From: Candidatus Eiseniibacteriota bacterium
GTDB taxonomy: Bacteria > Arandabacterota > Arandabacteria > Arandabacterales > Arandabacteraceae
Length of the DNA stretch: 62,719 bases
Reading direction: 5' to 3'
Assembly (NCBI GenBank): GCA_043810925.1
Contig: JBDRNT010000052.1
Location: 1 to 62,719 of the forward strand
In this document: positions 12,379 through 26,614 of the stretch, in pieces
Position numbering within the stretch: the first letter of the stretch is position 1
How the letters are laid out: every line of letters begins with the position of its first letter
Program-made: the position numbers and the translations under genes
The notes under the pieces: model-generated
What the model saw: only the letters and a program-made list of their open reading frames with translations
The model's database searches: none
What the model was told of the DNA's origin: nothing

Positions 12379-13080
12379 CTACTTGAAGCTCTCCTTGATC
12401 AACCCCCAGGTTGCCGGCTCTTCGTTCTCTGATGAGAGTGTGGATGCATCTGCCTCACTGTCACTGCTCCGTGGTGGCAATTCGATGCCCCAACCCTTGA
12501 GCATCTGATCTACCGCTTGGTGGATCTCCTCACGTGACGCACCTGCCTTTCTCATCTCCATGACTTTGTCATGAACCACCTCGCGCTGCTCTTCTGTGAG
12601 CAGTTCGCCGAGTTTGCCGTGGGGACCCGGATGTTCGGGACCATGCTCGGGCGGTTCAATGCCCCACCCTTCGAGCATCTCTCGAACGGCCTCGTGGATC
12701 TCCTTGCGTGACGCACCGGCTTCCCTCATCTCCGTGACCATGTCATGAACCGCTTCACGCTGCTCTTCTGTGAGCAGTTCACCGAGTTTGCCGTGGGGAC
12801 CGGGGTGTCGGGGACCATGCTCGGGCGGCTCGATGCCCCACCCTTCGAGCATCTCTCGAACGGTCTCGTGGATCTCCTTGCGTGACGCACCGGCTTCCCT
12901 CATCTCCGTGACCATGTCATGAACCGCTTCGCGCTGCTCTTCGGTGAGCAGTTCACCTAGTTTGCTATGAGGGCCGGAATGTCCGGGTCCGCCGGAAAGG
13001 GAGCCGGACCGTCCGGCGTAGCTCAGGGCGGTAGCTCCAATCACTGCGATCAGTACGATCATCAGACCGAATCTCTTCAT
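12379..13080 (-). CDS. Exported His/Met/Glu-rich helical repeat protein (3 x 58 aa) with C-terminal TWGLIK motif
   Basis: RBS GGAGGTG, signal peptide MKRFGLMIVLIAVIGATALSYA, repeats KLGELLTEEQRE...GWGIE. Confidence 0.85.
   Translation of the reverse strand: MKRFGLMIVLIAVIGATALSYAGRSGSLSGGPGHSGPHSKLGELLTEEQREAVHDMVTEMREAGASRKEIHETVREMLEGWGIEPPEHGPRHPGPHGKLGELLTEEQREAVHDMVTEMREAGASRKEIHEAVREMLEGWGIEPPEHGPEHPGPHGKLGELLTEEQREVVHDKVMEMRKAGASREEIHQAVDQMLKGWGIELPPRSSDSEADASTLSSENEEPATWGLIKESFK
12470..12970 (-). repeat. Intragenic tandem repeat, 174-bp period, about 3 copies
   Basis: GAGCAGTTC recurs at 12598, 12772, 12946. Confidence 0.92.
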
Positions 13081-13121
13081 CTCTTGTTCACCTCCTTCCG
13101 GTCTTCCGGGTTTCATAACGG

Positions 13122-13150
13122 TTAGACAACGATTCACCGGGTCCTATTCC
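13122..13150 (-). promoter_or_regulatory. ECF sigma promoter GGAATA-N16-TGTCTAA for the repeat-protein gene
   Basis: Both boxes and spacing identical to the site upstream of the sigma gene (14649-14677). Confidence 0.8.
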
Positions 13151-13232
13151 CAGATTCCGAAAGAAACGGGTGAGCCGGCATCGCCGGGGTGAGATTGGAG
13201 GACGAAGAGAAAGTAAGTCCTGAATTCGCTGG

Positions 13233-13625
13233 TTACTCTGGTGGCCTGCGGGGCTTCATGTGATCGCGCATCCTGCGCAGGTGCTCATGCCTGTTGTCAA
13301 GGCGCTCCTTCTGTTCGTCTGTAAGGATGGGATCGAGATCGTTTCTCATTGAATCCATGACGGCGGAAATTTCAGACCGGAATTCGGAGCTTATGTCGGA
13401 AAAGCGTTCTGAATGCTCGGCGAGAATACTACGCACTGCTTCGACCTGGTCGGGCTCGGGATCGATCAGCATCTCAATTGCGGACGCGAAGCCGTCCGGG
13501 CGCCCGCCGGGGAAGGGTGGCCTCAAGTGTCGGTGTAGCACGGGACCCGCGAGGAAAAGCCCGATCAAGATACCGATCACCAGTGTTGCAACAACGATAA
13601 GCGTGGTCTGCGATCGCGTGCTCAT
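13233..13625 (-). CDS. Membrane-anchored helical periplasmic protein (Spy/CpxP/heavy-metal-sensor-like)
   Basis: N-terminal TM, ILTDEQKERL motif, coupled to anti-sigma gene. Confidence 0.7.
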   Translation of the reverse strand: MSTRSQTTLIVVATLVIGILIGLFLAGPVLHRHLRPPFPGGRPDGFASAIEMLIDPEPDQVEAVRSILAEHSERFSDISSEFRSEISAVMDSMRNDLDPILTDEQKERLDNRHEHLRRMRDHMKPRRPPE

Positions 13626-14056
13626 GATAATGCCTCCATCACCGATTCAAACGGCGTTTCGATTACTTCTTCAATCGTGACCTTGGGTACACCCAGGGCG
13701 GCGGTTGCGGATATAGTGTTACTGCTGACGATATTGAAGATCGCCAGAGCGACTACTGCGAGAGCCCCGGCGAAGGCCGCCCGGCGAAACACATATGATA
13801 ACGATTCGAGAAATGTTTCTGCTCCGCGGTTCTCACCGGCGTTCGCCGTGAGCCGGCTCATCACCCGCTCGGCAAAGAACGGCTTGAAGGATTCCGCCGC
13901 ACTCACCGCCAACGACCTGCGGATCGCCAGGATTCGCACTCTCTCTTCGCGGAGTGCCTCCGACCGGGCCAGCGCCTCATCAAGTCGATGTTGCTCGGCG
14001 GGATCAAGATCCTCGTCAAGTGACCGGTAGAGCAGATTGAGCATTTCTTCATTCAT
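13622..14056 (-). CDS. Putative anti-sigma factor (single TM)
   Basis: Follows ECF sigma; cytoplasmic N-domain, FAERVM motif, one TM. Confidence 0.75.
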   Translation of the reverse strand: MNEEMLNLLYRSLDEDLDPAEQHRLDEALARSEALREERVRILAIRRSLAVSAAESFKPFFAERVMSRLTANAGENRGAETFLESLSYVFRRAAFAGALAVVALAIFNIVSSNTISATAALGVPKVTIEEVIETPFESVMEALS

Positions 14057-14058
14057 CG

Positions 14059-14616
14059 TTAGCCCCCATAAACATGCGGCAGTGCCTGCCTGAGTCTTCT
14101 CTGGGCCCTCGAGAGACGGGACAGCACCGTCCCAAGTGGTATCCCCAGGATATCTGCCGTCTCCGCGGTGGAGTACCCATCGATCAATCTCAGGACAACC
14201 ACAGCCCGGAAATCATCATCAAGTTCCTGAACCGCACGCTCGACGATCTCGGGATCCACTCCCTCCTCGGCGCGCGTCTTTGGATCGGCAATATCGTGAA
14301 ACTCCTCCACGGGTTTCTGCGAGAACAACAGTCGTTTCCGCTTTCGGCGTTTGATCTCGTTCAAGGACAGGTTTATTGCAATCCTTGTCAGATAGGTCTT
14401 GAGGCTCGATTCTCCCCTGAAGCTCTTAAGGGCCTTGTAGAAGCGGATGAACGTCTCCTGCCCTACGTCTTCCGCCTCTGCACAGTTTCCGAGCATGCCG
14501 ATCACCGTTGCCGCTACAACAGGCTCATAACGCCTGACGAGCTCCTTAAAAGCACGGTTGCTACCTTCACGGGCATTCCTGATTAGAGCTTCATCTATCA
14601 AGTGTTCTCTTTCCAA
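14059..14616 (-). CDS. ECF sigma-70 factor
   Basis: AEDVGQETF, region 4 TAETADILGIPLGTVLSRLSRA. Confidence 0.95.
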   Translation of the reverse strand: MEREHLIDEALIRNAREGSNRAFKELVRRYEPVVAATVIGMLGNCAEAEDVGQETFIRFYKALKSFRGESSLKTYLTRIAINLSLNEIKRRKRKRLLFSQKPVEEFHDIADPKTRAEEGVDPEIVERAVQELDDDFRAVVVLRLIDGYSTAETADILGIPLGTVLSRLSRAQRRLRQALPHVYGG

Positions 14617-14648
14617 TCAACGAACCCTCACCCTACCCTTCTACTCCA

Positions 14649-14677
14649 TTAGACACGTGGGCATCAAGGTATATTCC
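14649..14677 (-). promoter_or_regulatory. Autoregulatory ECF promoter GGAATA-N16-TGTCTAA
   Basis: RpoE-like boxes just upstream of the sigma gene; duplicated at 13122-13150. Confidence 0.8.
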
Positions 14678-14773
14678 ATAAGGGGATGAATTGGGCGTGA
14701 CCAAGGCACGCGCGGTGCCTCCGGGCGGTCTTTTGACCTTGAATTAAGTGTCGTGTCACCTTAATTTTGAGCC

Positions 14774-16543
14774 ATGATGAGAGTTTTGTTCCTCTGTTCC
14801 AGGAATGCATGCCGCAGCCAGATGGCCGAGGGGTTTGCGCGTTCGAGAAACGAGCCGGGCGTCGAGATAGCAAGTGCAGGTACTGTTGCGACAAGCGTTC
14901 ACCCGCTGGCGATCCGGGTGATGTCCGAGGCGGGCATCGACATTGCCGACCAGGCCTCGAAGTCCCTGGGTGAGCTTAAGTTGCTTGATTTCGATGTTGT
15001 GATTTCACTGTGCGATCAGGCAGCCAGGACCTGCCCCGTCCTTCCCGGTAATCCGGAGGTGGTCAACTGGGACCTTCCGGACCCGGCTGAGGAAGCTGAG
15101 GCCGCGAGATCCGGCAAAACACCTGAAAATGGAGATGAAGCCGCACTCAACGTTTTCAGGGCCTCGCGTGATGAGATTCGCCGGCTTGTCGATGACTTGT
15201 TCGAACGGGGTTATCTTAAGGCGCTCGCCGAGGCGAAGAGCGTTGCAGGCCTTGTCCTCAGCAATATCTCCGATGGCATCATCGCGCACGACATGGACCG
15301 GCGGGTATTTTACTTCAACAAGGCGGCCGAGGAGATTACGGGGTACACCCGAGCGGAAGTGATAAACCGTGACTGTCATGAAGCGTTTCCCGGAAGGTTC
15401 TGCGGGGGCAAGTGCCACTTCTGTGAGGATGCTCCGCCCGTGTCGGACTTCCTCAGGCAGGAGCTCGATATCACGACGAAGAGTGGAGAGCAGCGATTTG
15501 TCGAGATGTCGATCAGGGCCATGACCGGCGGCACGGGCGAGAAGATAGGCGTGCTAGTCTCCTTCAGGGACCTTACGCGGGAACGTCGTCTTGCCCGGCG
15601 GTTGGGTGAGGTCGATAGTTTTGCGGGGATCATCGGGCGAGACAGCAAGATGCTCGAGGTTTTCGATCTGATCCGGGATCTGGCGGATTCACAGGCGCCG
15701 GTGCTGGTCCAGGGGGAAAGCGGCACAGGCAAGGAACTTGTGGCTGCGGCGATTCACAATGAAGGGCAGCGTGCCAGCAGCCTCTTTGTACCAGTTAACT
15801 GCGGCGCCCTCCCCGAGTCTCTGCTTGAGAGTGAGCTCTTCGGCCACGTTAAGGGCGCGTTCACAGGGGCGATCCGCGATAAGAAAGGCCGGTTTGAGCT
15901 TGCCGACGGGGGGACCATCTTTCTGGATGAGATCGGTGACATCCCGCCTGCCACCCAGGTGAGGCTTCTGAGGGTGCTGCAGGACGGCACCTTTGAGCGG
16001 GTCGGCAGCGAGAGAACGGTCAAGGTCGATGTTCGTCTGATAAGTGCGACGAACAAGAATCTGACGGAGGAGATTGCCGCCGGCAGATTCAGGGAGGACC
16101 TCTTTTACAGACTCAGTGTCGTTCCTGTTGTCTTGCCGCCACTTCGTGACCGGCGAAACGATATACCGCTGCTTGTAGACCATGTCCTGAGGCGGGAAAC
16201 CGAGAGAATGAACCGGGGGGAGATCACGATCTCGCCGGAAGTGATGGGTATCTTGCTGTCCTACGACTGGCCGGGCAATGTCCGGGAGCTTCAAAACTGG
16301 ATCCAGTTCGCACTTGTCAAGTGCAAGGGTGAGGTGATCAAGGCGGAGCACTTGCCCCCACGAATCGGTTCACCCCCCCTTCCTGCCGGGAGAGCAAGAC
16401 GACCCCGCAGCCGGAAGCTCAATGCCATCTCGGTACGCAGCGCGCTCGCTGAAACCGGAGGCAACAAGGTCGAGGCGGCCCGGCGTCTGGGCGTATCGCG
16501 CGCGACCCTCTACCGGTTCCTCGACGAGGTCGGCGATCTGTAG
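14774..16543 (+). CDS. Sigma54 enhancer-binding protein: ArsC/LMW-PTP - PAS (CX8CX3C) - AAA+ - Fis HTH fusion
   Basis: CSRNACRSQMAEG, LCDQAARTCP, DP; PAS with CHEAFPGRFCGGKCHFC; GESGTGKE, GAFTGA, WPGNVREL, LGVSRATLYR. Confidence 0.93.
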   Translation: MMRVLFLCSRNACRSQMAEGFARSRNEPGVEIASAGTVATSVHPLAIRVMSEAGIDIADQASKSLGELKLLDFDVVISLCDQAARTCPVLPGNPEVVNWDLPDPAEEAEAARSGKTPENGDEAALNVFRASRDEIRRLVDDLFERGYLKALAEAKSVAGLVLSNISDGIIAHDMDRRVFYFNKAAEEITGYTRAEVINRDCHEAFPGRFCGGKCHFCEDAPPVSDFLRQELDITTKSGEQRFVEMSIRAMTGGTGEKIGVLVSFRDLTRERRLARRLGEVDSFAGIIGRDSKMLEVFDLIRDLADSQAPVLVQGESGTGKELVAAAIHNEGQRASSLFVPVNCGALPESLLESELFGHVKGAFTGAIRDKKGRFELADGGTIFLDEIGDIPPATQVRLLRVLQDGTFERVGSERTVKVDVRLISATNKNLTEEIAAGRFREDLFYRLSVVPVVLPPLRDRRNDIPLLVDHVLRRETERMNRGEITISPEVMGILLSYDWPGNVRELQNWIQFALVKCKGEVIKAEHLPPRIGSPPLPAGRARRPRSRKLNAISVRSALAETGGNKVEAARRLGVSRATLYRFLDEVGDL

Positions 16544-16562
16544 GACTGTCCCGCAGACATCC

Positions 16563-16609
16563 TGTCTCAAAGTGTCTCATTGTCTATTCCTGCGCCTCCA
16601 AATGAGACA
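16563..16609 (+). promoter_or_regulatory. Candidate upstream activator sequence (TGTCTCA x2, TGAGACA)
   Basis: TGTCTCA at 16563 and 16573, TGAGACA at 16603; mirrored at 23365-23414. Confidence 0.7.
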
Positions 16610-16695
16610 GATCCAAGTATTCCGCCGGCAGAATGTCCTACGTAATTGCCTTTGCCATAAAGAGTTAGCCCATTCCTGCCAGACTACACCAAGAT

Positions 16696-16712
16696 TGGCA
16701 CGAATCGAGCAT
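16696..16712 (+). promoter_or_regulatory. Sigma54 -24/-12 promoter TGGCACGAATCGAGCAT
   Basis: TGGCACG with GG-N10-GC spacing, directly downstream of the EBP gene. Confidence 0.75.
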
Positions 16713-16745
16713 GAATAATTCGGTGTCTTGAATAATTCGGTGTCT
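16712..16745 (+). repeat. 17-bp tandem duplication TGAATAATTCGGTGTCT x2
   Basis: Exact direct repeat; contains the TAATTCGGTG end of repeat family A. Confidence 0.9.
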
Positions 16746-16775
16746 GCTTACAAATTAGGGGAATCGGGGACAGTT

Positions 16776-16979
16776 ATGAATCAAGCGCGTAATGATTACA
16801 TCAAAAAAGCTCTGGAGTTGGCGCGCACGCTGACCATCCTGGCAGATGAGGGTGAGGCCGTAAGCCGGGATGACGGCTGCATAGTCCTCTACAGCGTGAT
16901 CAGGGATTGTGCCTACAGAATTCGCACTGAGGCTGAGCGGGAACGGGATGCGCACAAGGCGAAAGGCGTGTGGGCGTGA
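16776..16979 (+). CDS. Small helical hypothetical protein (67 aa, two Cys)
   Basis: GGGGA RBS, first ORF after the sigma54 promoter; LADEG...GC..LY...RDCAY pattern. Confidence 0.75.
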   Translation: MNQARNDYIKKALELARTLTILADEGEAVSRDDGCIVLYSVIRDCAYRIRTEAERERDAHKAKGVWA

Positions 16980-17092
16980 GCGGAACGGCGTCTGGGCTGA
17001 TGGGATGGAGAAAAGGAGGCTTGAGCATCTTAGCATGGTACACCGGCCTCATCACAATTGAATCGCGGTGGAAACAGGAAAGGACGGGTGAG

Positions 17093-17683
17093 ATGAGTTC
17101 GAAGAGAATCGCAGTTGCATTATTGTTGGGCGTCATCATAAGTGTGTTCGCAGTGACTACTGTGACAGCGGGAACTGGTTGTTCGAAGAAGTGTGCCAGC
17201 GCCTGCGGCGCCGCGGAGAAGAAGGCGGAATCTCCGGAGGCCACGGTCATAAAGGCTCAGACGATCTGCCCGGTGATGGGCAATGAGATCAACAAGAATC
17301 TTTACGCAGACGTGGACGGTAAGCGTGTATATGTGTGCTGTCAGGGTTGTATTGCAGCCGTCAAGGCGGATCCTGAGAAGTACCTGGCATTGATCGCGGC
17401 CAGGGGCGAGACGGTCGCGGAGACGCCACCGATACTCTGCGGTAAGTGCGGCCAGCTCAAGGGAACCGAGGAATGCTGTATGAAGGACGCGGTCAGGTGC
17501 AAAGATTGCGGCATGGCGAAGGGATCGCCCGGGTGCTGCATCATGCCTGAAGCGGGCAAGGACGTCGATCTATGCACGAAGTGTGGTGAGATCAAGGGAA
17601 GCGATGACTGCTGTGGCAAGGACATGCAACATTGCAAGAAGTGTGGACTGGCAAAGGACTCACCCGGTTGTTGCAATATCTAA
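17093..17683 (+). CDS. Exported YHS-domain protein with four CxxCG..K....CC repeats
   Basis: Signal peptide from ATG 17093; QTICPVMG...VYVCCQGC...DPEKY YHS motif; Cys-rich tail. Confidence 0.85.
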
Positions 17684-19974
17684 GCGCCGAGGCCATCACG
17701 GCGGCGGAGAGGCGAGGTCGCGCCCGGCCTCGCCGCTTCCGCAACCCCGGGGCAAGGGCCACTCGATCAGGAACAAGTGGCCCGGTCCTGATACTGCTTG
17801 CGGTGGCGATGGCGTTCTTGTGGTCTGGATGCAGCACGGAGAGAGGTGATGAGACGGTGGTGACCGAAGACAAGACCGGCGTGCACGTCAACAGACTCAT
17901 AAACGAAGCGAGCCCCTATCTTCTCCAGCATGCCCATAATCCGGTGGACTGGTATCCGTGGGGAGAAGAGGCCCTGGCCAGGGCTCGCCATGAAACCAAA
18001 CCCATATTTCTTTCAATCGGTTACTCTGCCTGCCACTGGTGCCATGTGATGGAACTTGAATCCTTTGAGAATGATGAGATTGCCGGGATCCTCAACCGGG
18101 AGTTCGTATCGATCAAGGTGGACAGGGAGGAGCGTCCCGATCTCGACGAGATCTACATGAATTCGGTCCAGTTGATGACCGGAAGCGGCGGCTGGCCTCT
18201 TTCGGTGTTCCTGACCCCCGACCTCAAGCCTTTCTTCGGCGGTACATACTTCCCGCCGGAGGATCGCCTCGGTCTGCCGGGATTTAAGAGCGTGCTTATG
18301 CAGGTGGCGGCGGTGTGGATGGAAAGACGGGGAGATGTCCTCAACAGCGCCGAACAGATCACCCAGGTCCTGCGAACACGTCGGCAAATGTCATCCGGAG
18401 ACGGGGAGATCGACAAGGACATTCTGAGCGAGACTGTAAAGCAGCTCACCTATTCATTCGATCAGAAATTCGGCGGGTTCGGCGACGCTCCCAAGTTTCC
18501 ACCCTCGGGTGCGATCGGTTTGCTCCTTCGGCGGTATCTGCAGACACGTGATGAAAACCTCCTTCGCATGGCGACTCTTACACTCGATAAAATGGCCGGG
18601 GGCGGAATGTATGATCAGATCGGCGGGGGCTTTCATCGCTATTCCGTAGACCGGACGTGGCTGGTTCCGCACTTCGAGAAGATGCTTTACGACAATGCAC
18701 TGCTGAGCGTCACCTATCTTGAAGCCTACCAGTTGACCGGAAAGCCGCTTTATCGCAGGATTGCCGCTGAAACACTGGATTATGTCATCCGCGTGATGAG
18801 CGCCCCGTCGGGCGGGTTTCACTCCACCCAGGATGCCGACAGCGAGGGAGAAGAAGGCAAGTACTATGTCTGGGGCGCAGGTGAGATTGCCGACATCCTC
18901 GGTCCGGCGGATGCCACACTCTTCTCTGCCTACTATGATGTTACCGATGAAGGTAATTTCGAAGGGAAGACCATTCTGAATGTTCCGGTTACGGCCGGCG
19001 AGTTCGCCGGTACGCATGACATGACGGAAGAAGATCTGTTGGTGCGCTTCGCACCACTGAGGAAGAGACTACTCCAGGCACGGGCCGGGCGGGTTCCACC
19101 GGCCATGGACGACAAGGTCATTGCATCGTGGAACGGGATGATGATATCCGCGCTCGCACGAGGCTACCAGGTGCTCGGCGAAAAGCGCTTCCGTACAGCG
19201 GCCGAAGGAGCGGGCGACTTCATCCTGGCCTCCATGATGGAAAATGGAGAGATCTTCCACACCTACCGCGCAGGGCATGCGAGGATTCCCGGCTACCTCG
19301 ATGACTACGCTCACATTGCGAATGCGATGGTGGACCTCTATGAGACAACATTTGATGTCAGGTGGATAGAAGCATCCAACGGGTTGGTTGCGAAAATGAT
19401 CGATCTCTTCCGGGATGACGACCAGGGGGGATTCTATTTCACCTCTTCACGCCACCAACACCTTCTGACGAGGACCAAGCCCTATTTGGACGGCTCGGTA
19501 CCCTCCGGTAATTCGACCGCGGCACTTGTTCTTCTACGGTTGGGAAGACTTACCGGCAACAACGCTTACCTTACCAGGGCCGAACAGGTCCTGAGAGCGG
19601 CCATGCCGATGCTCAAGGCGCACCCTACGGCGCTCACCCACATGTTGGGTGCGATGGATTCCTATCTATCTCCCGTCAAGGAGATAGCGATCGCGGGGAG
19701 GATAGATGAGCCCGAGACCCGGCAGATGCTGGCTACGGTTCGCAGCGGGTTTCTGCCCAACAAGGTCGTCGCTTTCATTGATCCTGATGACGCCGGCGCC
19801 CAGCAGGCCCGGGAGCATATCCCCTTGCTTGCCGGAAGGTCGGTATTGTACAATACGGCAACGGCCTACGTGTGCGAGAACCAGGCGTGCGATAGGCCTC
19901 TCAACGATCCCGATGAATTGGCCAGGAAACTCAATCTCGACACCAGGGTAGATCAGGGAGGATCCGACGAATGA
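17632..19974 (+). CDS. yyaL: YyaL/SPATA20 thioredoxin-domain plus alpha/alpha-barrel protein (start uncertain)
   Basis: [45 protein letters not shown]. Confidence 0.92.
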
Positions 19975-21164
19975 ATACATCGCTTCGAGACGGCATCGAC
20001 TGGGTTGGCTATGTCGATTGGACGATCAGGGATTTTCACGGATACCGCACAGAGCGGGGTTCGACCTACAATGCCTACCTCGTCCGCGATGAAAAAACGG
20101 CACTTATAGATACGGTCAAGCGTCCTTATGCAGACAGGCTGCTGGCCAATGTCTCGGCTCTGAGCGATATATCGAAAATCGATTATGTGGTCTGCAATCA
20201 TGCCGAGCCGGACCATTCGGGCAGTCTCCCGGTTGTGTTGAAGGCGTGCCCGAATGCCCGGATAGTGTGTGATGCCAAGTGCAAGGACACCCTGAGCAAG
20301 TATTACGACACCGAAGGCTGGAATTGGAAAGTTGTCGCCGGCGGGGACACCATCTCCCTGGGTAAGCGTACGCTCACATTCGTTGAGACGCCGATGGTCC
20401 ACTGGCCGGAGTCGATGTTTACGTACGTGCCGGAAGAGAAACTTCTCTTCTCAATGGATGCCTTCGGTCAGCACTATGCCTCGGCCCACAGGTTTGATGA
20501 TGAGGAGCCGCTTGATGTCGTGATGGCTGAGGCCAAGATCTACTACGCGAACATAGTAATGCTCTATGGGAAGCCGATCTCGCAGGTTCTGGACAAGGCG
20601 GCCGGGCTCGATATTGAGATCATCGCACCAAGCCACGGTGTGATCTGGAGGAAGAACCTGGACACTATAATCTCTGCGTATAAGTGCTGGGTAGTGTGCA
20701 AACCGGCCGCGAAGGTTCTCGTTGTCTATGACACAATGTGGCAAAGCACCGAGAAGATGGCTCTCGCGATTCTTGAGGGAGCAAGTCAGTGTGGTGTGGA
20801 TGTGAAACTGATCAACATACGTACGAGCGGGACGACAATGCTTGCCGCCGAGACCCTCGATGCCGCGGCCATTGCGTTTGGATCTCCAACACTCAATATG
20901 ACGCTCATGCCGCAGATGGCAGCCGGTCTTACGTATCTTAAGGGACTCAAGCCCGTGGGTAAGGCGGGTTTTGCGTTTGGCTCTTACGGGTGGGCCAAAG
21001 GTGGTGCCAAGGATATCGAGACCTACCTTAAGGATATGAAGTTTGAAATACTGCGCGAACCGCTTCAGGCACAGTTCGTGCCGGGTGGGGATGTACTTGA
21101 TGAATGCCGCGCCGCGGGGAAGATGCTTGCTGAAAAGGCGCTCGCGGTTGTATGCGAAAAATAG
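19971..21164 (+). CDS. fprA: Flavodiiron protein (O2/NO reductase)
   Basis: [23 protein letters not shown], flavodoxin TMWQST and FGSYGW. Confidence 0.95.
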
Positions 21165-21189
21165 GGATAGTAACCAGGGAGGAAGCAGC

Positions 21190-21762
21190 GTGAATCTTAA
21201 AGGAAGCAAAACGGAGAAGAACCTGCTCACCGCTTTTGCGGGTGAGTCCCAGGCACGAAACCGATACACCTACTTCGCAAGCAAAGCTAAGAAAGACGGT
21301 TACGTACAGATGTCGGCCATATTCGAGGAGACGGCCGCCCAGGAGAAGGAACATGCCGAACGTCTGTTTAAGTTTCTTGAAGGCGGTGCCGTTGAGATAA
21401 CCGGTTCCTTCCCCGCGGGCGTCATCGGTCCCACGGTTGATAATCTAAAAGGGGCTGCCGCGGGTGAGAACTACGAATGGACCGAGATGTATCCCGGCTT
21501 TGCGAAGGTGGCGAAGGATGAAGGTTTCGGCGACATCGCCGAGGTTTTCACGAGCATTGCCGTGGCGGAGAAGTTTCATGAGAAGCGTTACCTGGCACTT
21601 GCAGCCAATATCGACGCGGGACGTGTCTTCAAGCGCCCGGACAAGGTAGTCTGGAGATGCCGCAACTGTGGTTATCTCTACGAGGGAACGGAAGCACCCG
21701 ATGAGTGTCCGGCGTGCGCGCACCCGAAGGCTCACTACGAGCTGCTGTGCGAGAATTGGTAA
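21190..21762 (+). CDS. rbr: Rubrerythrin
   Basis: GTG start after [32 protein letters not shown]...CPAC. Confidence 0.96.
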
Positions 21763-21814
21763 AGCCGGACCTGATTAGAAAGGTCTTTTAACACATTGGA
21801 GAGGGGGATCACGG

Positions 21815-22189
21815 ATGGCTGAGAGACTCGAGGTTTACAAGTGTGAAGTGTGCGGCAACATAGTCGAAGTGCTCCACGGAGGCCAGGGCGAGCTCGTCTG
21901 CTGCGGGCAGCCCATGAAGTTACAGGCTGAAAACACGGTTGACGCGGCCAAGGAAAAGCACGTGCCCGTTGTCGAGAAAACACCGTCGGGCGTCAAGGTC
22001 AAGGTCGGCAGTGTGGCCCATCCGATGGAAGAGAAGCACTATATTGAATGGGTACAGATTATCGCCGGCGGCCGTGCATACAGAATCTTCCTTAAACCCG
22101 GCGACGCTCCCGAAGGTACCTTCGATGTCGCTAAGGGTGATGTAATAGCGAGGGAGTACTGTAATCTTCACGGCCACTGGAAAGCATAG
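21815..22189 (+). CDS. dfx: Desulfoferrodoxin (2Fe superoxide reductase)
   Basis: CEVCGN, CCGQPM, EKHVP, HPM, HYIEW, CNLHG. Confidence 0.96.
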
Positions 22190-22283
22190 ATCGACTCAGT
22201 CGGTCTTTTTGTGAAGGGGGAATGAGGTCTGTGTTCATTCCTGCGCTCGCCGGGCCGGGTATCTGAGGGAGGTAGGCGGCAAG

Positions 22284-23006
22284 ATGGACTTGACTGCTCT
22301 AAATATGTGCAGCTATGGCCTTTACATCCTGACCTCGAAGAAGGGTGACAAGGTAAACGGCCAGATCGTCAATACGGTCTTTCAGGTGGCGGCCGAACCT
22401 CCGACCATTGCAGTGAGTGTGAATAAGCAGAACCTCACGCATGAGTTTATCTCAGAAAGCAAGGTCTTCACGGCCTCCATCCTTTCAACGGAGGCACCGA
22501 TGACCCTCATTGGAAAATGGGGTTTCAAATCGGGACGGGATACCGACAAGTTTGAAGGTACGAATCACAAACTCGGTGAGACAGGGGCGCCCATAATTCT
22601 GGATAGTACGGTCGCATATGTCGAAGCCCGGGTGGTGAACACCGCCGATGTCGGCACGCACACGATATTCATCGGCAAGGTTGTTGATTGCGGCGTGATC
22701 CGGGATGGTGAGCCGATGACCTATGCTTATTATCACAATGTCAAGAAAGGCAAGACGCCCGAAAGGGCAGCAACATTTGTGAAGGAAAAATCCGACAAGA
22801 CTGGGACCGGCCCCGCGGGGGGCGCCATGAAGGAGGCAAAGGAATTGAAGAAATACACATGCTCGGTTTGTGGTTATGTCTACGATCCTGCAAAAGGTGA
22901 TCCCGATAACGGTGTAAAGCCGGGGACAGCATTTGAGAGCCTTCCGGATGACTGGGTTTGCCCGGTATGTGAAGCGACCAAAGACCAGTTTTCGCCTGAA
23001 GAGTAA
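22284..23006 (+). CDS. Flavin reductase-rubredoxin fusion (high-molecular-weight rubredoxin)
   Basis: [21 protein letters not shown]-terminal CSVCGYVYD...WVCPVC. Confidence 0.93.
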
Positions 23007-23025
23007 ACACCTCGGGAAACCCCCG

Positions 23026-23052
23026 GGGGTCAGGTCTTGAAATTAAGCGTTT
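23026..23052. repeat. REP-like repeat, family B
   Basis: GGGGTCAGGTCTTGAAATTAAGCGTTT, inverse of 154-180. Confidence 0.8.
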
Positions 23053-23150
23053 TCAAAGACGGTTTCCGAGGTGCCATCTACGCTCAGGTTGCCCATTTCG
23101 GGAATCCTCAGGTGTTCTCCCTAAAATCGTGAACTCGGGCTTCGCCCGGT

Positions 23151-23241
23151 TGTTACTGCGAGCTCCCGAAGGGAGCGTGGCAACCTCCTGGGAGGTGCAT
23201 ACGAAGAGACTGCTTGGTCGCTGGCGCTTCTCGCAGTGACA
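23151..23241. repeat. Branched palindromic element (family C)
   Basis: TGTTACTGCGAG / CTCGCAGTGACA outer arms, inner GCTCCC-GAA-GGGAGC hairpin. Confidence 0.7.
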
Positions 23242-23364
23242 CAATACGGTCACTCCGCCATCTTCCTGACAGTCGTCCACATGAGGGTTCTCTCTCCTCA
23301 TGAGCAAATTAGCTTCAAAGAGTTTCGTGAACGACCTCATGCGCATGACGGGCACCATGTCTTA

Positions 23365-23414
23365 TGTCTCACCGGCCCTTGTGGCGGCGCCGGCTTGCGA
23401 GACATTGTGAGACA
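23365..23414 (+). promoter_or_regulatory. Candidate upstream activator sequence for hcp operon
   Basis: TGTCTCA 23365, CGAGACA 23398, TGAGACA 23408. Confidence 0.7.
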
Positions 23415-23502
23415 CTTGCCACTGCACCAACATCATGCGATAATGATGTATCTCATTGGGGTTATAGCGACATACGGTAACCCTGAGAACGATGACACCG
23501 GC

Positions 23503-23518
23503 TGGCACGTATCCTGCC
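23503..23518 (+). promoter_or_regulatory. Sigma54 -24/-12 promoter TGGCACGTATCCTGCC
   Basis: Near-consensus TGGCACG-N4-CTGC, about 55 bp before the hcp ATG. Confidence 0.8.
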
Positions 23519-23573
23519 ATAGATGGTTCATGTAGTGTAATCGTCGGGTTGAAACCAGGAGGAGGAAGGATTA

Positions 23574-25226
23574 ATGTTTTGCTACCAGTGTGAACAGACC
23601 GCCAAGGGAACCGGCTGTGACAAGTTCGGTGTATGCGGTAAGTCGCCGGAGGTGGCTAACCTGCATGATGTCCTGGTCCATGCGACTAAGGGCATAGGCA
23701 TGTACGCCCACCGGGCAGGGCAGCTCGGTGCCCGCGACCATGATGTCGATGTCTTCGTACTTGAAGCCCTCTTCTCGACAGTGACAAACGTGGATTTCGA
23801 TCCTGACCGGATCGAGGGTTTCATCCGCAAGGCCGCCGGGATCAAGGACAAGGCCAGGGCGCTTTACGAAAGTGCCTGCAAGAAGGCCGGGAAGACTCCG
23901 GAGGAACTCTCGGGGCCCGCGCAGTGGGTACCCGGCTCGAGCCGAGAAGAACTCGTCATCGAGGGCGAAAAGGTCGGTATCAATGCTGCGCGGCAGGCCT
24001 CGGGTGATGATATCGCGGGGCTCCAGTATCTTCTCATCTATGGCCTTAAGGGCACGGCTGCTTACGCCGACCATGCCATGATCCTCGGTAAGGAGAACGA
24101 TGGGGTATATGCGTTCTTCCACGAGGCCCTCGACTACCTTGCAAAGGGTAATCCCACTGTAGATGAACTCCTCGGGCTTTGCCTGCGCTGCGGTGAGGTG
24201 AATCTCCAGGTGATGGGCCTGCTCGATGCCGCCAACACGGATGCATACGGTCATCCCGAGCCCACACAGGTGAGGGTGGAACCGGTCAAGGGCAAGGCCA
24301 TACTGGTGTCCGGACATGATCTTAAGGATCTCGATGGACTCCTCAAACAGACCGAAGGCAAGGGAGTCAATGTCTACACTCATGGTGAGATGCTGCCTGC
24401 TCATGCTTATCCCGGACTCAAGAAGTACAAGCACCTGGTCGGCAACTACGGCGGTGCCTGGCAGGACCAGCAGCGCGAGTTCGAAGATTTTCCGGGTGCG
24501 ATATTGATGACAACCAACTGCATCCAGAAGCCAAGAGAAAGCTACAAAGCGAGGATCTTCACCTGCGGTCTCGTCGCCTGGCCGGGGGTCCCGCACATCG
24601 CAGATAGTGATTTCACCCCGGTGATCGATGCGGCACTCAAGGCGGAGGGTTTTGCTGAAGACGGTCCGGACAAGACGATCACCGTCGGTTTCGGCCACAA
24701 TGCCGTGCTCGGGGTTGCGGACAAAGTGATTGAAGCTGTGAAATCGGGCAAGATCAAGCATTTCTTCCTGATCGGCGGGTGCGACGGCGCAAAGAGCGGG
24801 CGGAACTATTACACCCAGTTCGCCGAGGCTGTGCCTCGCGATTCGGTGATTCTGACACTGGCGTGCGGTAAGTACCGTTTCAACAAACTCGACTTCGGTG
24901 ACATAGATGGTATTCCGAGACTGCTCGATATCGGCCAGTGTAACGATGCTTACTCGGCGATTCAGATTGCGGTGGCTCTTGCCAAGGCATTTGATACGGA
25001 TGTCAACAGCCTGCCGCTTTCGATGATACTCTCATGGTACGAGCAGAAGGCTGTATGCATACTCCTGACTCTGCTCCATCTCGGTATCAAGAACATCAAA
25101 CTCGGTCCGAGTCTGCCGGCGTTTGTTACCCCGGCGGCACTCAAGGTGCTGGTCGATAAGTTCAATATCGCTCCGATTTCGACGGTCGAAGAGGACCTCA
25201 AGTCGGCGCTCGGTCAGGCTGTGTAG
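23574..25226 (+). CDS. hcp: Hybrid cluster protein (hydroxylamine/NO reductase)
   Basis: MFCYQCEQT...C...GVCGK, SGHDL, THGEM, TTNC, GGCDG, LACGK, GQCND, SWYEQK. Confidence 0.97.
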   Translation: MFCYQCEQTAKGTGCDKFGVCGKSPEVANLHDVLVHATKGIGMYAHRAGQLGARDHDVDVFVLEALFSTVTNVDFDPDRIEGFIRKAAGIKDKARALYESACKKAGKTPEELSGPAQWVPGSSREELVIEGEKVGINAARQASGDDIAGLQYLLIYGLKGTAAYADHAMILGKENDGVYAFFHEALDYLAKGNPTVDELLGLCLRCGEVNLQVMGLLDAANTDAYGHPEPTQVRVEPVKGKAILVSGHDLKDLDGLLKQTEGKGVNVYTHGEMLPAHAYPGLKKYKHLVGNYGGAWQDQQREFEDFPGAILMTTNCIQKPRESYKARIFTCGLVAWPGVPHIADSDFTPVIDAALKAEGFAEDGPDKTITVGFGHNAVLGVADKVIEAVKSGKIKHFFLIGGCDGAKSGRNYYTQFAEAVPRDSVILTLACGKYRFNKLDFGDIDGIPRLLDIGQCNDAYSAIQIAVALAKAFDTDVNSLPLSMILSWYEQKAVCILLTLLHLGIKNIKLGPSLPAFVTPAALKVLVDKFNIAPISTVEEDLKSALGQAV

Positions 25227-25282
25227 GTGTGTGGTGTTCGGTGATGGGTGGAGTTTGAGTGTCCCGGTAGGGGAGGTGCCCG

Positions 25283-26092
25283 ATGGCGAAGCGCAAGATC
25301 ATAAACATTGATGAGGACCTGTGCACCGGGTGTGGTGAGTGTATAACCGGGTGTGCGGAAGGCGCGCTCGCTCTGGTCGCCGGTAAGGCCAAGCTGGTCA
25401 AAGAGCAGTTCTGTGACGGTTTCGGTGATTGCATCGGCACCTGCCCCACGGGGGCCCTCAAGATCGAGGAGCGCGAGAGCGACGAATTCGATAGCGAAGC
25501 GACGAAGCAATATCTCAGGCAGACCCAGGGCGATGAAGCGGTTCGTAAGATGGAAGACGCAGCCCGGGCCCATGAGGAAGGAAGGCATCCGGGGAAGAAG
25601 CCCGACAAGGCACCGGGGCCGGCTCCGGGTGGTTGTCCCGGCAGCAGGATGAGAACCAATCTCAAGTCCGGAGGCGGCAGCCAGGCGGTGCCCGCATCGG
25701 GAATGCCGGGTCATGTCAATGAATCCGAACTCGACCAGTGGCCCGTCCAGCTCCACCTGGTTCAGCCGGGAGCCCCGTTCTTTGAGGATCGTGAACTTGT
25801 GGTTCTGAGTACGTGCTCCCCAATTGCGTCTGCGGACGTACACTGGCGCTTCATGCGTGGACGGGCGGTTGTGGTCGGCTGTCCCAAACTGGACCGGACG
25901 GAACCCTATGTCGGGAAACTTGCAGCGATATTGAGCGAGCCGACGATACCCAGGGTGATCGTCGTCCGGATGGAGGTTCCGTGCTGCGGAGGGCTCACGG
26001 CAATGGTGCGGGAAGCCGTCAAGCAGAGTGGTCGCAAAGACCTCGGGTTCGAGGAGGTCACAATCGGTATCAACGGCGACATAGCAGGATAG
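25283..26092 (+). CDS. Hcp-associated 2x[4Fe-4S] ferredoxin-domain protein
   Basis: CTGCGEC...C, CDGFGDCIGTCP, GGCPG, QWPVQL, GCPKLD, MEVPCC. Confidence 0.9.
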   Translation: MAKRKIINIDEDLCTGCGECITGCAEGALALVAGKAKLVKEQFCDGFGDCIGTCPTGALKIEERESDEFDSEATKQYLRQTQGDEAVRKMEDAARAHEEGRHPGKKPDKAPGPAPGGCPGSRMRTNLKSGGGSQAVPASGMPGHVNESELDQWPVQLHLVQPGAPFFEDRELVVLSTCSPIASADVHWRFMRGRAVVVGCPKLDRTEPYVGKLAAILSEPTIPRVIVVRMEVPCCGGLTAMVREAVKQSGRKDLGFEEVTIGINGDIAG

Positions 26093-26104
26093 TCCGGCAC
26101 TTGG

Positions 26105-26157
26105 TAATTTGGTGTCAGGCACCTGATTCTCCGAATTAGTAAGTTGGTACCAAATTA
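26105..26157. repeat. Family A inverted pair (compact)
   Basis: TAATTTGGTGTCAGGCACCTGATT and inverse arm TAATTTGGTACCAACTTACTAATT. Confidence 0.65.
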
Positions 26158-26176
26158 GATGATGGGAGATCATGAG

Positions 26177-26494
26177 ATGGATGAATTCAAGAGCAAGTCT
26201 GTGGACCTGGCAGCCGCGATTGACTATGCGGAGGGTTCGATTGTCAGTAAGACCCTGATTGATAAGAAGGCCGGAACCCTTACACTTTTCGCTTTTGGAG
26301 AGGGGCAGGCCCTGAGCGAACACACGGCACCGTTCGATGCGACCGTGTTAATCTTAGACGGTGAGGCCAAACTGACGATCGGGGGCAAGGACGTTTCCGC
26401 AAAGACAGGCCAGATGGTCATCATGCCGGCCGATGTCCCGCACGCCGTGCGTGCCGTTACGCCCTTCAAGATGCTGCTCATCATGATACGGTAA
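26177..26494 (+). CDS. Cupin domain protein
   Basis: LFAFGEGQALSEHTAP, MPADVPHAVRA. Confidence 0.9.
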   Translation: MDEFKSKSVDLAAAIDYAEGSIVSKTLIDKKAGTLTLFAFGEGQALSEHTAPFDATVLILDGEAKLTIGGKDVSAKTGQMVIMPADVPHAVRAVTPFKMLLIMIR

Positions 26495-26614
26495 CGCTTG
26501 CCTATCGGGCCCATTCGTTCGCTGTCCGAAATCCATTGCTGCGTGCCAAGGTCCTTGGTATAGTATTAGCGGAGCTATCCCGGCTTATTCACAAACCTCG
26601 CTAGAGGACGCGTT

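Follow-up and report, generated by a model that had tools for sequence, protein, structure and literature searches.

Paired TGTCTCA heptamer clusters and predicted sigma-54 promoters beside an ArsC-like/PAS activator gene point to a two-unit oxidant and nitric oxide defence regulon in Candidatus Eiseniibacteriota

The window that we analysed, that is the whole stretch of DNA of 62,719 nucleotides (nt), comes from the uncultured anaerobe Candidatus Eiseniibacteriota bacterium (Arandabacteraceae; GenBank GCA_043810925.1, contig JBDRNT010000052.1), the genome of which is a 3.85-Mb assembly that is 91.7% complete. It holds the gene of a sigma-54 activator of 589 amino acids (aa), in which an ArsC-like domain is fused to PAS, AAA+ and Fis-type helix-turn-helix (HTH) domains, followed by two units of genes for defence against oxygen, reactive oxygen species (ROS) and nitric oxide (NO). 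In front of each unit there is a cluster of the heptamer TGTCTCA and its inverse, here called an enhancer, and further downstream a predicted sigma-54 promoter. Behind promoter 1 are seven genes on the same strand, the last of which ends at 23006, and behind promoter 2 are the gene of the hybrid cluster protein, hcp, and a ferredoxin gene (Table 1). It is likely, judging from the comparisons described here, that the activator binds the heptamer clusters about 90-140 bp upstream of both sigma-54 promoters and drives both units.

Table 1. Features of the activator locus and of the two units behind it (window positions)
Feature	Position	Strand	Basis or remark
Sigma-54 activator, 589 aa: ArsC-like domain of the low molecular weight protein tyrosine phosphatase (LMW-PTP) fold (~1-140), PAS, AAA+, Fis-type HTH	14774..16543	+	PF01451, PAS, PF00158, PF02954
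Enhancer 1: TGTCTCA 16563 and 16573, degenerate TGTCTAT 16581, inverted TGAGACA 16603, AGACA 16555	16555..16609	no strand	
Sigma-54 promoter 1, TGGCACGAATCGAGCA (GG-N10-GC)	16696..16711	+	predicted from sequence
17-nt unit TGAATAATTCGGTGTCT, perfect tandem duplication in the 5' leader of unit 1, right after the -12 element	16712..16745	+	
Small protein, 67 aa, first gene of unit 1, no known family	16776..16979	+	no Pfam or NCBIfam match
Cys-rich exported protein, no family	16970..17683	+	sequence read
DUF255 thioredoxin-like protein, lipoprotein-type leader	17632..19974	+	PF03190, 3.7e-78; start uncertain
Flavodiiron protein (FprA-type O2/NO reductase)	19971..21164	+	Pfam ODP and Flavodoxin_1
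Rubrerythrin	21043..21762	+	PF02915 and PF21349; true start downstream of 21043
Desulfoferrodoxin (superoxide reductase)	21815..22189	+	PF06397 and PF01880
Flavin reductase-rubredoxin fusion (Hrb-like)	22284..23006	+	PF01613 and PF00301
Enhancer 2: TGTCTTA 23358, TGTCTCA 23365, CGAGACA 23398, TGAGACA 23408	23358..23414	no strand	
Sigma-70-like promoter TTGCCA-17-GATAAT, extended -10 TG, between enhancer 2 and promoter 2	23416..23444	+	10/12 matches
Sigma-54 promoter 2, TGGCACGTATCCTGCC	23503..23518	+	predicted from sequence
Hybrid cluster protein, hcp	23574..25226	+	PF03063, 2.5e-171
4Fe-4S ferredoxin-domain protein downstream of hcp	25283..26092	+	Fer4 families

The heptamer has the extended consensus TGTCTCAT, and relative to the T of TGGCA the heptamers of enhancer 1 are centred at -130, -120 and -90, and the elements of enhancer 2 at -142, -135, -102 and -92. 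An earlier note on this DNA had placed heptamers at 16563, 16573, 16603, 23365, 23398 and 23408 and -24/-12 boxes at 16696 and 23503, with the outer heptamers 133/93 and 138/95 bp before the TGGCAC, and when we read the letters again all of these were exact. Its description of site 2 as the mirror image of site 1 is only approximately right, the inner spacers being 23 and 26 nt. The degenerate copies TGTCTAT, AGACA and TGTCTTA had been overlooked.

The signal resides in the combination of heptamers and promoter, not in either element alone. If a sigma-54-like site is one that matches at least 9 of 11 consensus positions, the genome holds 401 of them, and at only two, those described here, do at least two exact heptamers lie 50-200 bp upstream. 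The counts there are 3 and 2, and no other site has more than 1. Among the 489 heptamers in the 3.85 Mb, two or more fall within 60 bp of each other at only four places, the only triple being site 1, and at the two places other than sites 1 and 2 (one in apparent coding sequence, one just 5' of an open reading frame) there is no promoter match. A relaxed scan for the same geometry over 41,995 GG-N10-GC sites gave 60 hits and no third site with both a good promoter and exact heptamers, all the others having poor promoters or only one-mismatch heptamers. A genome-wide scan for heptamers with a downstream promoter had been proposed in the earlier note, and its outcome is that the combination is unique to the two sites. 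The same note regarded a genome lacking rpoN as fatal to its proposal; rpoN is present, as a 471-aa open frame on contig C37 (PF04552, 207 bits). Searching genome contigs for the exact pattern TGTCTCA-N3-TGTCTCA returned 120 loci from mixed taxa that were essentially chance matches, and none of them combined a third heptamer with a convincing promoter.

Could two unrelated intergenic regions share short repeats and a GG-N10-GC box simply by chance? Each element singly does occur at chance frequency in the window, with 8 heptamers against 8.5 expected and 3 copies of TGGCAC-N7-GC against 2.24, and heptamer pairs within 60 bp are found at two unrelated genomic places as well. The explanation is nevertheless hardly credible, given that the combination is unique among the 401 promoter-like sites, is footprinted in a relative and recurs across phyla with a fixed geometry.

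The host phylum is small, with 18 species genomes, and the fused activator is carried only by G000 and G001; among 40 relatives a full-length match to the activator was found in G001 only. Footprinting within the phylum, which the earlier note had also suggested, rests on this one genome of the same genus, whose activator is 92% identical and which has both enhancer sites. The heptamer blocks and the promoters are kept in G001 and the spacers have diverged. At site 1 the first heptamer block is identical at 26 of 27 positions, the second at 15 of 15 and the promoter at 14 of 16, and the spacer at 4 of 8. At site 2 the corresponding figures are 18/18 and 20/24 for the two blocks, 16/16 for the promoter and 4/21 for the spacer between the blocks, and the DNA upstream of the enhancer is identical at 38 of 108 positions; over the whole stretch from enhancer to promoter, 61 of 82 positions are conserved. 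Each copy of the 17-nt unit that is duplicated in the leader of unit 1 contains TGTCT. We judge this duplication to be recent because G001 has a single copy, and it is probably an accident rather than an operator.

Outside the genus we counted a locus as orthologous if its product matches the activator over the entire N-terminal half, which gave 17 loci, 11 of them genomic and 6 metagenomic, and in 12 of the 17 the downstream DNA can be read. The metagenome scan had given 80 loci, mostly plain arsC genes; the whole N-terminal half was matched in only 6, and 4 of these run off their contig. At six of the twelve readable loci (L160, L161, L162, L166, L170 and L240), from Lentisphaerota and Verrucomicrobiota lineages, the full module is found in the same order, that is the stop codon of the activator gene, TGTCTCA-type heptamers, a GG-N10-GC promoter and a homologue of the 67-aa gene. 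When all 7-mers were counted over eight enhancer regions, TGAGACA/TGTCTCA ranked first, with 14 copies and a presence in all eight; none of 1000 shuffles reached eight regions, the maximum being five. The geometry is also shared: 12 of the 13 sites compared have the centre of the inverted heptamer nearest the promoter 80-94 bp before the T of TGGCA, and a forward heptamer is found near -120, in most cases accompanied by another one 10 or 19 bp upstream of it.

Second sites were sought through heptamer pairs in five activator-bearing genomes. In G041 (Lentisphaerales) there is one with the sigma-54 promoter TGGCATGAATCTAGCA before a ferritin gene, and in G042 (Victivallales) one with the same bipartite layout as at the activator-adjacent enhancer of that genome, preceding homologues of the second and third genes of the window unit (Cys-rich exported and thioredoxin-like). 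A Fibrobacterota genome has the activator without an adjacent enhancer, and its small gene lies elsewhere, behind near-heptamers and a sigma-54 promoter, and the next frame, judged by eye, begins like a rubrerythrin. Because second sites occur in other activator-bearing genomes, predicted multi-promoter regulons marked by the TGTCTCA enhancer are a recurring feature. The cargo behind the orthologous promoters comprises thioredoxin-like proteins, FprA, rubredoxin, rubrerythrin, desulfoferrodoxin, ferritin, DsbD, glucose-6-phosphate dehydrogenase and 6-phosphogluconolactonase, and is a defence set against oxygen, ROS and thiol stress with its NADPH supply. The inverted repeat of heptamers is not a terminator of the activator gene, since no such gene precedes site 2 or the unlinked sites of G041, G042 and G047. 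Two further heptamer-pair loci of the five-genome scan (L444 and L447) looked like chance.

The activator itself has an AAA+ domain (PF00158, E 3.9e-71, residues 286-452) with a GAFTGA loop that can be read in the sequence, and a C-terminal HTH (PF02954 HTH_8, E 1e-08, residues 557-581), which together with the sigma-54 of the genome and the GG-N10-GC boxes at the targets are the marks of a sigma-54 activator. Its PAS domain has the motif C201-X8-C210-X3-C214-X2-C217 with E203 at C+2, that is, the CX8CX3C triad and the acidic residue of an OrpR-type PAS domain. The triad is kept in 34, 34 and 33 of 34 aligned family members, and the fourth cysteine in 27. The N-terminal domain aligns over residues 1-106 with solved ArsC chains of the LMW-PTP fold (E 5.5e-22 to 1e-16) and keeps the P-loop C8-X5-R14-S15, a WDLPDP stretch, C80 and C87, the last two having roles that we presume from the ArsC literature. 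The protein is below the cut-off of TIGR02691, the model of thioredoxin-coupled ArsC (108 against 174.3 bits), Pfam detects no GAF domain in it, and the NorR model NF003451 gives 322 bits against a cut-off of 476 with a match that covers the AAA+ and HTH domains only. At least 120 protein clusters among those listed share the architecture, with source names from Verrucomicrobiota, Kiritimatiellae, Lentisphaerae, Planctomycetota, Sumerlaeia and Bacillota.

The recognition helix, GV[SG]RATLYRFL, is conserved in this family and differs from that of an OrpR-like paralogue in the same genome (contig C161, 30994-32802), which has two CX8CX3C PAS domains. Because the genome has this separate paralogue with another recognition helix, the activator is, as far as its sequence tells, a sister subfamily of OrpR and not OrpR itself. 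The paralogue gene is followed by a promoter-like site, GGCACG-N4-ATGC, and the next gene (from about 33030) starts NifX/NifB-like by eye, a type of protein that is encoded in orp operons. Between helix and motif we found no clean covariation: the helix is the same in L241, where no motif lies nearby, and L161 combines the motif with the Gly variant.

If the heptamers were instead the operator of another regulator, the -24/-12 boxes could be served by a different activator, or one of them could be a chance match. The genome does hold at least 17 regions that match sigma-54 activators, the -12 elements are weak, and what ties this protein to the motif is adjacency and co-occurrence. On the other hand, the heptamers accompany this activator gene in different phyla, with a constant spacing to a sigma-54 promoter, they mark second sigma-54 promoters in two other genomes, and the recognition helix is conserved in the family and unlike that of the OrpR-like paralogue, for which reasons we find such a division of labour quite improbable.

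The most rational explanation is still that both units form one regulon under the activator. The proposal of the earlier note, that the adjacent ArsC-PAS enhancer-binding protein drives both units through sigma-54, is supported by the presence of rpoN, by the uniqueness of the combination in the genome, by the footprint in G001, by the recurrence beside orthologous activators in other phyla and by the second sites in two genomes. A number of observations weigh against it. Neither the heptamer nor the promoter motif is enriched in the window on its own, the -12 elements of both promoters (GAGCA and CTGCC) are weak, and heptamers 30 bp apart, with elements spaced by about 10, 20 and 30 bp, do not fit a single Fis-type DNA-binding dimer. 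G001, a close relative, carries little independent weight, and the regions used for the 7-mer count had been picked after promoters had been seen in them. Six of the twelve readable loci lack the full downstream module: L164, L167 and L241 have no heptamer/promoter module downstream of the activator gene, none was seen in the 137 bp that can be read at L168, L169 has one exact and one near heptamer and no promoter match, and L244 has the pair TGTCTCA-N17-TGAGACG upstream of the activator gene instead. Furthermore, of 34 relatives only 23 to 29 keep the ArsC-type cysteines and 5 to 11 are without them, OrpR works in its reduced state, the opposite of what a stress regulon needs, and hcp also stands behind a conserved sigma-70-like promoter.

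Enhancer-binding proteins use ATP to open the complex of sigma-54 RNA polymerase with the promoter. We picture the activator assembling on the heptamers of both enhancers, which the comparisons support well, with oligomerisation on the phased sites and then an ATP-dependent opening of the closed complex, as in the rest of the family. Transcription would start near 16722 and 23529, about 12 nt past the GC. From promoter 1 the genes of the one-Cys protein, the Cys-rich exported protein, DUF255, FprA, rubrerythrin, desulfoferrodoxin and the flavin reductase-rubredoxin would be co-transcribed, and from promoter 2 hcp with the ferredoxin gene. The primary sensor would be the OrpR-type PAS domain, probably with a [4Fe-4S] cluster on C201, C210 and C214, and a second redox input may come from the thiol cascade of the ArsC-like domain (C8, R14, C80 and C87), which is wholly kept here; both are read from the residues of the protein. 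Since the ArsC-type cysteines have been lost in part of the family, the ArsC-like domain cannot be a universal sensor. The sensor module would restrain the AAA+ domain until oxygen, peroxide or NO acts on the cluster or the thiols. That the switch is turned on by oxidant stress is a guess from the cargo, to which we give even chances; the cargo speaks for oxidants or NO as the activating signal, which is how NorR and PexR work.

Several known systems resemble this one in part. OrpR (DVU2106) of Desulfovibrio vulgaris Hildenborough is a sigma-54 activator that senses redox state through a [4Fe-4S] PAS domain (C52, C61 and C65) and is active in the reduced state (PMC8359166). It shares with our protein the PAS-AAA+-HTH core, the identical CX8CX3C spacing, the acidic residue two positions past the first cysteine and a two-promoter regulon beside the regulator gene. 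For comparison, an OrpR-like gene was taken from a Nitratidesulfovibrio genome by means of two flanking published palindromes, and residues 161-583 of the activator are 40% identical to its product with the cysteine triad aligned. What differs is the added N-terminal ArsC-like domain, the recognition helix and the DNA motif, TGTCTCA, the OrpR palindrome GGGCGYRTTTTGCGCCC having no match within three mismatches in the window; the targets differ as well, being O2/ROS/NO defence genes here and the orp genes for OrpR.

PexR of Myxococcus xanthus is a sigma-54 activator with a GAF sensor for H2O2 that turns on ahpC and katB, and in both NorR and PexR the sensor domains inhibit until the signal arrives (PMC12754779). 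As here, a sigma-54 activator takes the place of OxyR or PerR in oxidant defence, repeats stand before two separate promoters, and the same dual sigma-70/sigma-54 layout may be present at one target. PexR has, however, a Zn/Fe GAF sensor in contrast to ArsC-like and Fe-S PAS domains, it reads CACCG-N6-CGGTG palindromes, and its targets are peroxiredoxin and catalase rather than rubrerythrin, desulfoferrodoxin, FprA and hcp. NorR and NorR2 are NO-responsive sigma-54 activators, of norVW in Escherichia coli and of hcp-hcr in Vibrionales (PMC1274295), and are similar in having three tandem sites upstream of a sigma-54 promoter and targets that include a flavodiiron NO reductase and hcp, but NorR detects NO through the non-haem iron of its GAF domain, and its sites are GT-N7-AC palindromes. 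Finally, the N-terminal domain keeps the P-loop, C80 and C87 of thioredoxin-coupled ArsC (LMW-PTP fold, pI258/B. subtilis type), with the difference that it is fused to a transcription factor and that no ars genes are under its control here.

The control of hcp seems to differ between lineages. At all four hcp genes of three other activator-bearing genomes the enhancer is absent, and three of the four have a TTGAC-N4-ATCAAG palindrome, in L451, L452 and L454 as CTTGAC-N4-ATCAAGG about 90-100 bp before hcp. By its sequence this is an FNR/CRP type of box, which we take to be linked to HcpR. The hcp gene of the window has no TTGAC-N4-ATCAA within two mismatches between 23006 and 23574. Since the hcp genes of the other genomes lack the enhancer and that of the window lacks the FNR-type box, hcp seems to have joined the regulon specifically in this genus; the core of the regulon, the small protein together with O2/ROS/thiol defence, is shared across phyla. 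A box similar to the palindrome is given for DNR, and NorR2 with hcp in Vibrionales is a precedent for sigma-54 control of hcp (PMC1274295). The earlier note had set its proposal against the usual control of hcp by HcpR, NsrR or Fnr; with NorR2 as precedent, control by sigma-54 is not new.

The sigma-70-like promoter between enhancer 2 and promoter 2 raises the question of dual control, in which hcp would mainly be read from this promoter in unstressed cells, and the bound activator would occlude it and on signal fire the sigma-54 promoter. This would extend, not replace, the regulon proposed above. With its TG before the -10 it scores 10/12, the -35 begins 2 bp past the heptamer at 23408-23414, a near-heptamer TATCTCA lies at about its +1, the -10 with TG and the 17-nt spacing are retained in G001, and PexR at ahpC is a precedent for a repressor-activator (PMC12754779). 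However, sigma-70-like matches are no commoner in the region than in shuffles (5 against 6.1 expected), the retention in G001 is weak evidence as the whole stretch from enhancer to promoter is generally conserved, and no such promoter was found at site 1. We regard dual control as rather unlikely.

A wider hypothesis, which is tentative and which we hold possible rather than likely, is that many strict anaerobes of the Planctomycetes-Verrucomicrobia-Chlamydiae (PVC) group and beyond use the family as their master switch for oxidant stress, without OxyR or PerR. An Fe-S PAS domain and an ArsC thiol cascade would read out through the phased TGTCTCA enhancer, always transcribing first a small one-Cys feedback protein and then the O2/ROS/NO/thiol defence genes of the lineage, and in this genus the switch would have displaced FNR-type control of hcp and may repress the sigma-70 promoter there.

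Sigma-54 activators of nitrosative and peroxide defence (NorR, NorR2 and PexR) and an Fe-S PAS activator (OrpR) are known already. New from the window are the enhancer motif with its fixed geometry, the second operon and the drawing of hcp into the regulon. Our literature search, with the supplements of the cited papers outside its coverage, found no description of the ArsC-like/Fe-S-PAS subfamily or its TGTCTCA enhancer, none of the small one-Cys protein, and no sigma-54 control of rubrerythrin, desulfoferrodoxin or FprA. In a survey of sigma-54 regulons (PMC12316311), a search for the terms found no mention of rubrerythrin, desulfoferrodoxin or hybrid cluster protein. How rubrerythrin, superoxide reductase, flavodiiron proteins and Hcp are controlled is little understood in strict anaerobes beyond model clostridia and Desulfovibrio, and PexR (December 2025), whose sensor differs, is the only peroxide-sensing sigma-54 activator in print. 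The locus offers a testable regulon, with a defined protein, a 7-bp element with fixed geometry, two promoters and matches in other phyla, and the fused ArsC-like domain, the small one-Cys protein and the OrpR-type Fe-S PAS domain are all accessible to ordinary biochemistry in E. coli. Regulatory rewiring can also be seen in it, as hcp elsewhere stands without the enhancer and in three of four cases with an FNR-type box.

The earlier note had described the first operon as fprA-rbr-dfx-hrb. These genes are in it, but it does not start at fprA, as the genes of the 67-aa one-Cys protein, the Cys-rich exported protein and the DUF255 protein precede them. At all 8 module loci the gene of the small protein comes first after the promoter, and it accompanies rubrerythrin and desulfoferrodoxin genes even where the activator gene is not adjacent (also loci L160, L161, L162, L166, L170, L240 and L448-L450). 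Its family has 422 representative clusters at E<=0.001 and no Pfam or NCBIfam model, and C35, in a DDGC motif, and D44 are invariant in 55 sequences. Complex prediction for the activator with the small protein gave scores of 0.24 and 0.26, the mark being 0.32.

The Cys-rich exported protein has two copies of a C-x2-C ... CC ... C-x2-C ... GCC repeat, and is probably translated from the internal ATG that precedes MSSKRIAV. Its identity to the product of the first gene behind the second enhancer of the Victivallales genome G042 (L446, 1633-2121) is 43% (E 1e-42), and in both genomes the gene adjoins a thioredoxin-like gene under the same type of enhancer. The flavodiiron protein matches a flavorubredoxin-type NCBIfam model at 1.4e-117, which is below the family cut-off.

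An Rfam scan of 14000-26500 gave no family at gathering score. A search for sequencing runs that contain the locus listed none of RNA, and one of DNA that shares a small part of its words. Terminator-like hairpins lie at 22188-22206, directly 3' of desulfoferrodoxin, and at 23135-23149, about 130 bp past the end of operon 1, such hairpins being no more numerous in the region than expected by chance. On the other side of the activator gene, and divergent from it, is the gene of an extracytoplasmic function (ECF)-type sigma factor (14059-14616, minus strand), behind which come two open reading frames without a family assignment and the gene of a Metal_resist (Spy/CpxP-like) domain protein (window 12379-14616, minus strand). 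By its gene content this cluster is possibly an envelope-stress unit beside the redox regulon.

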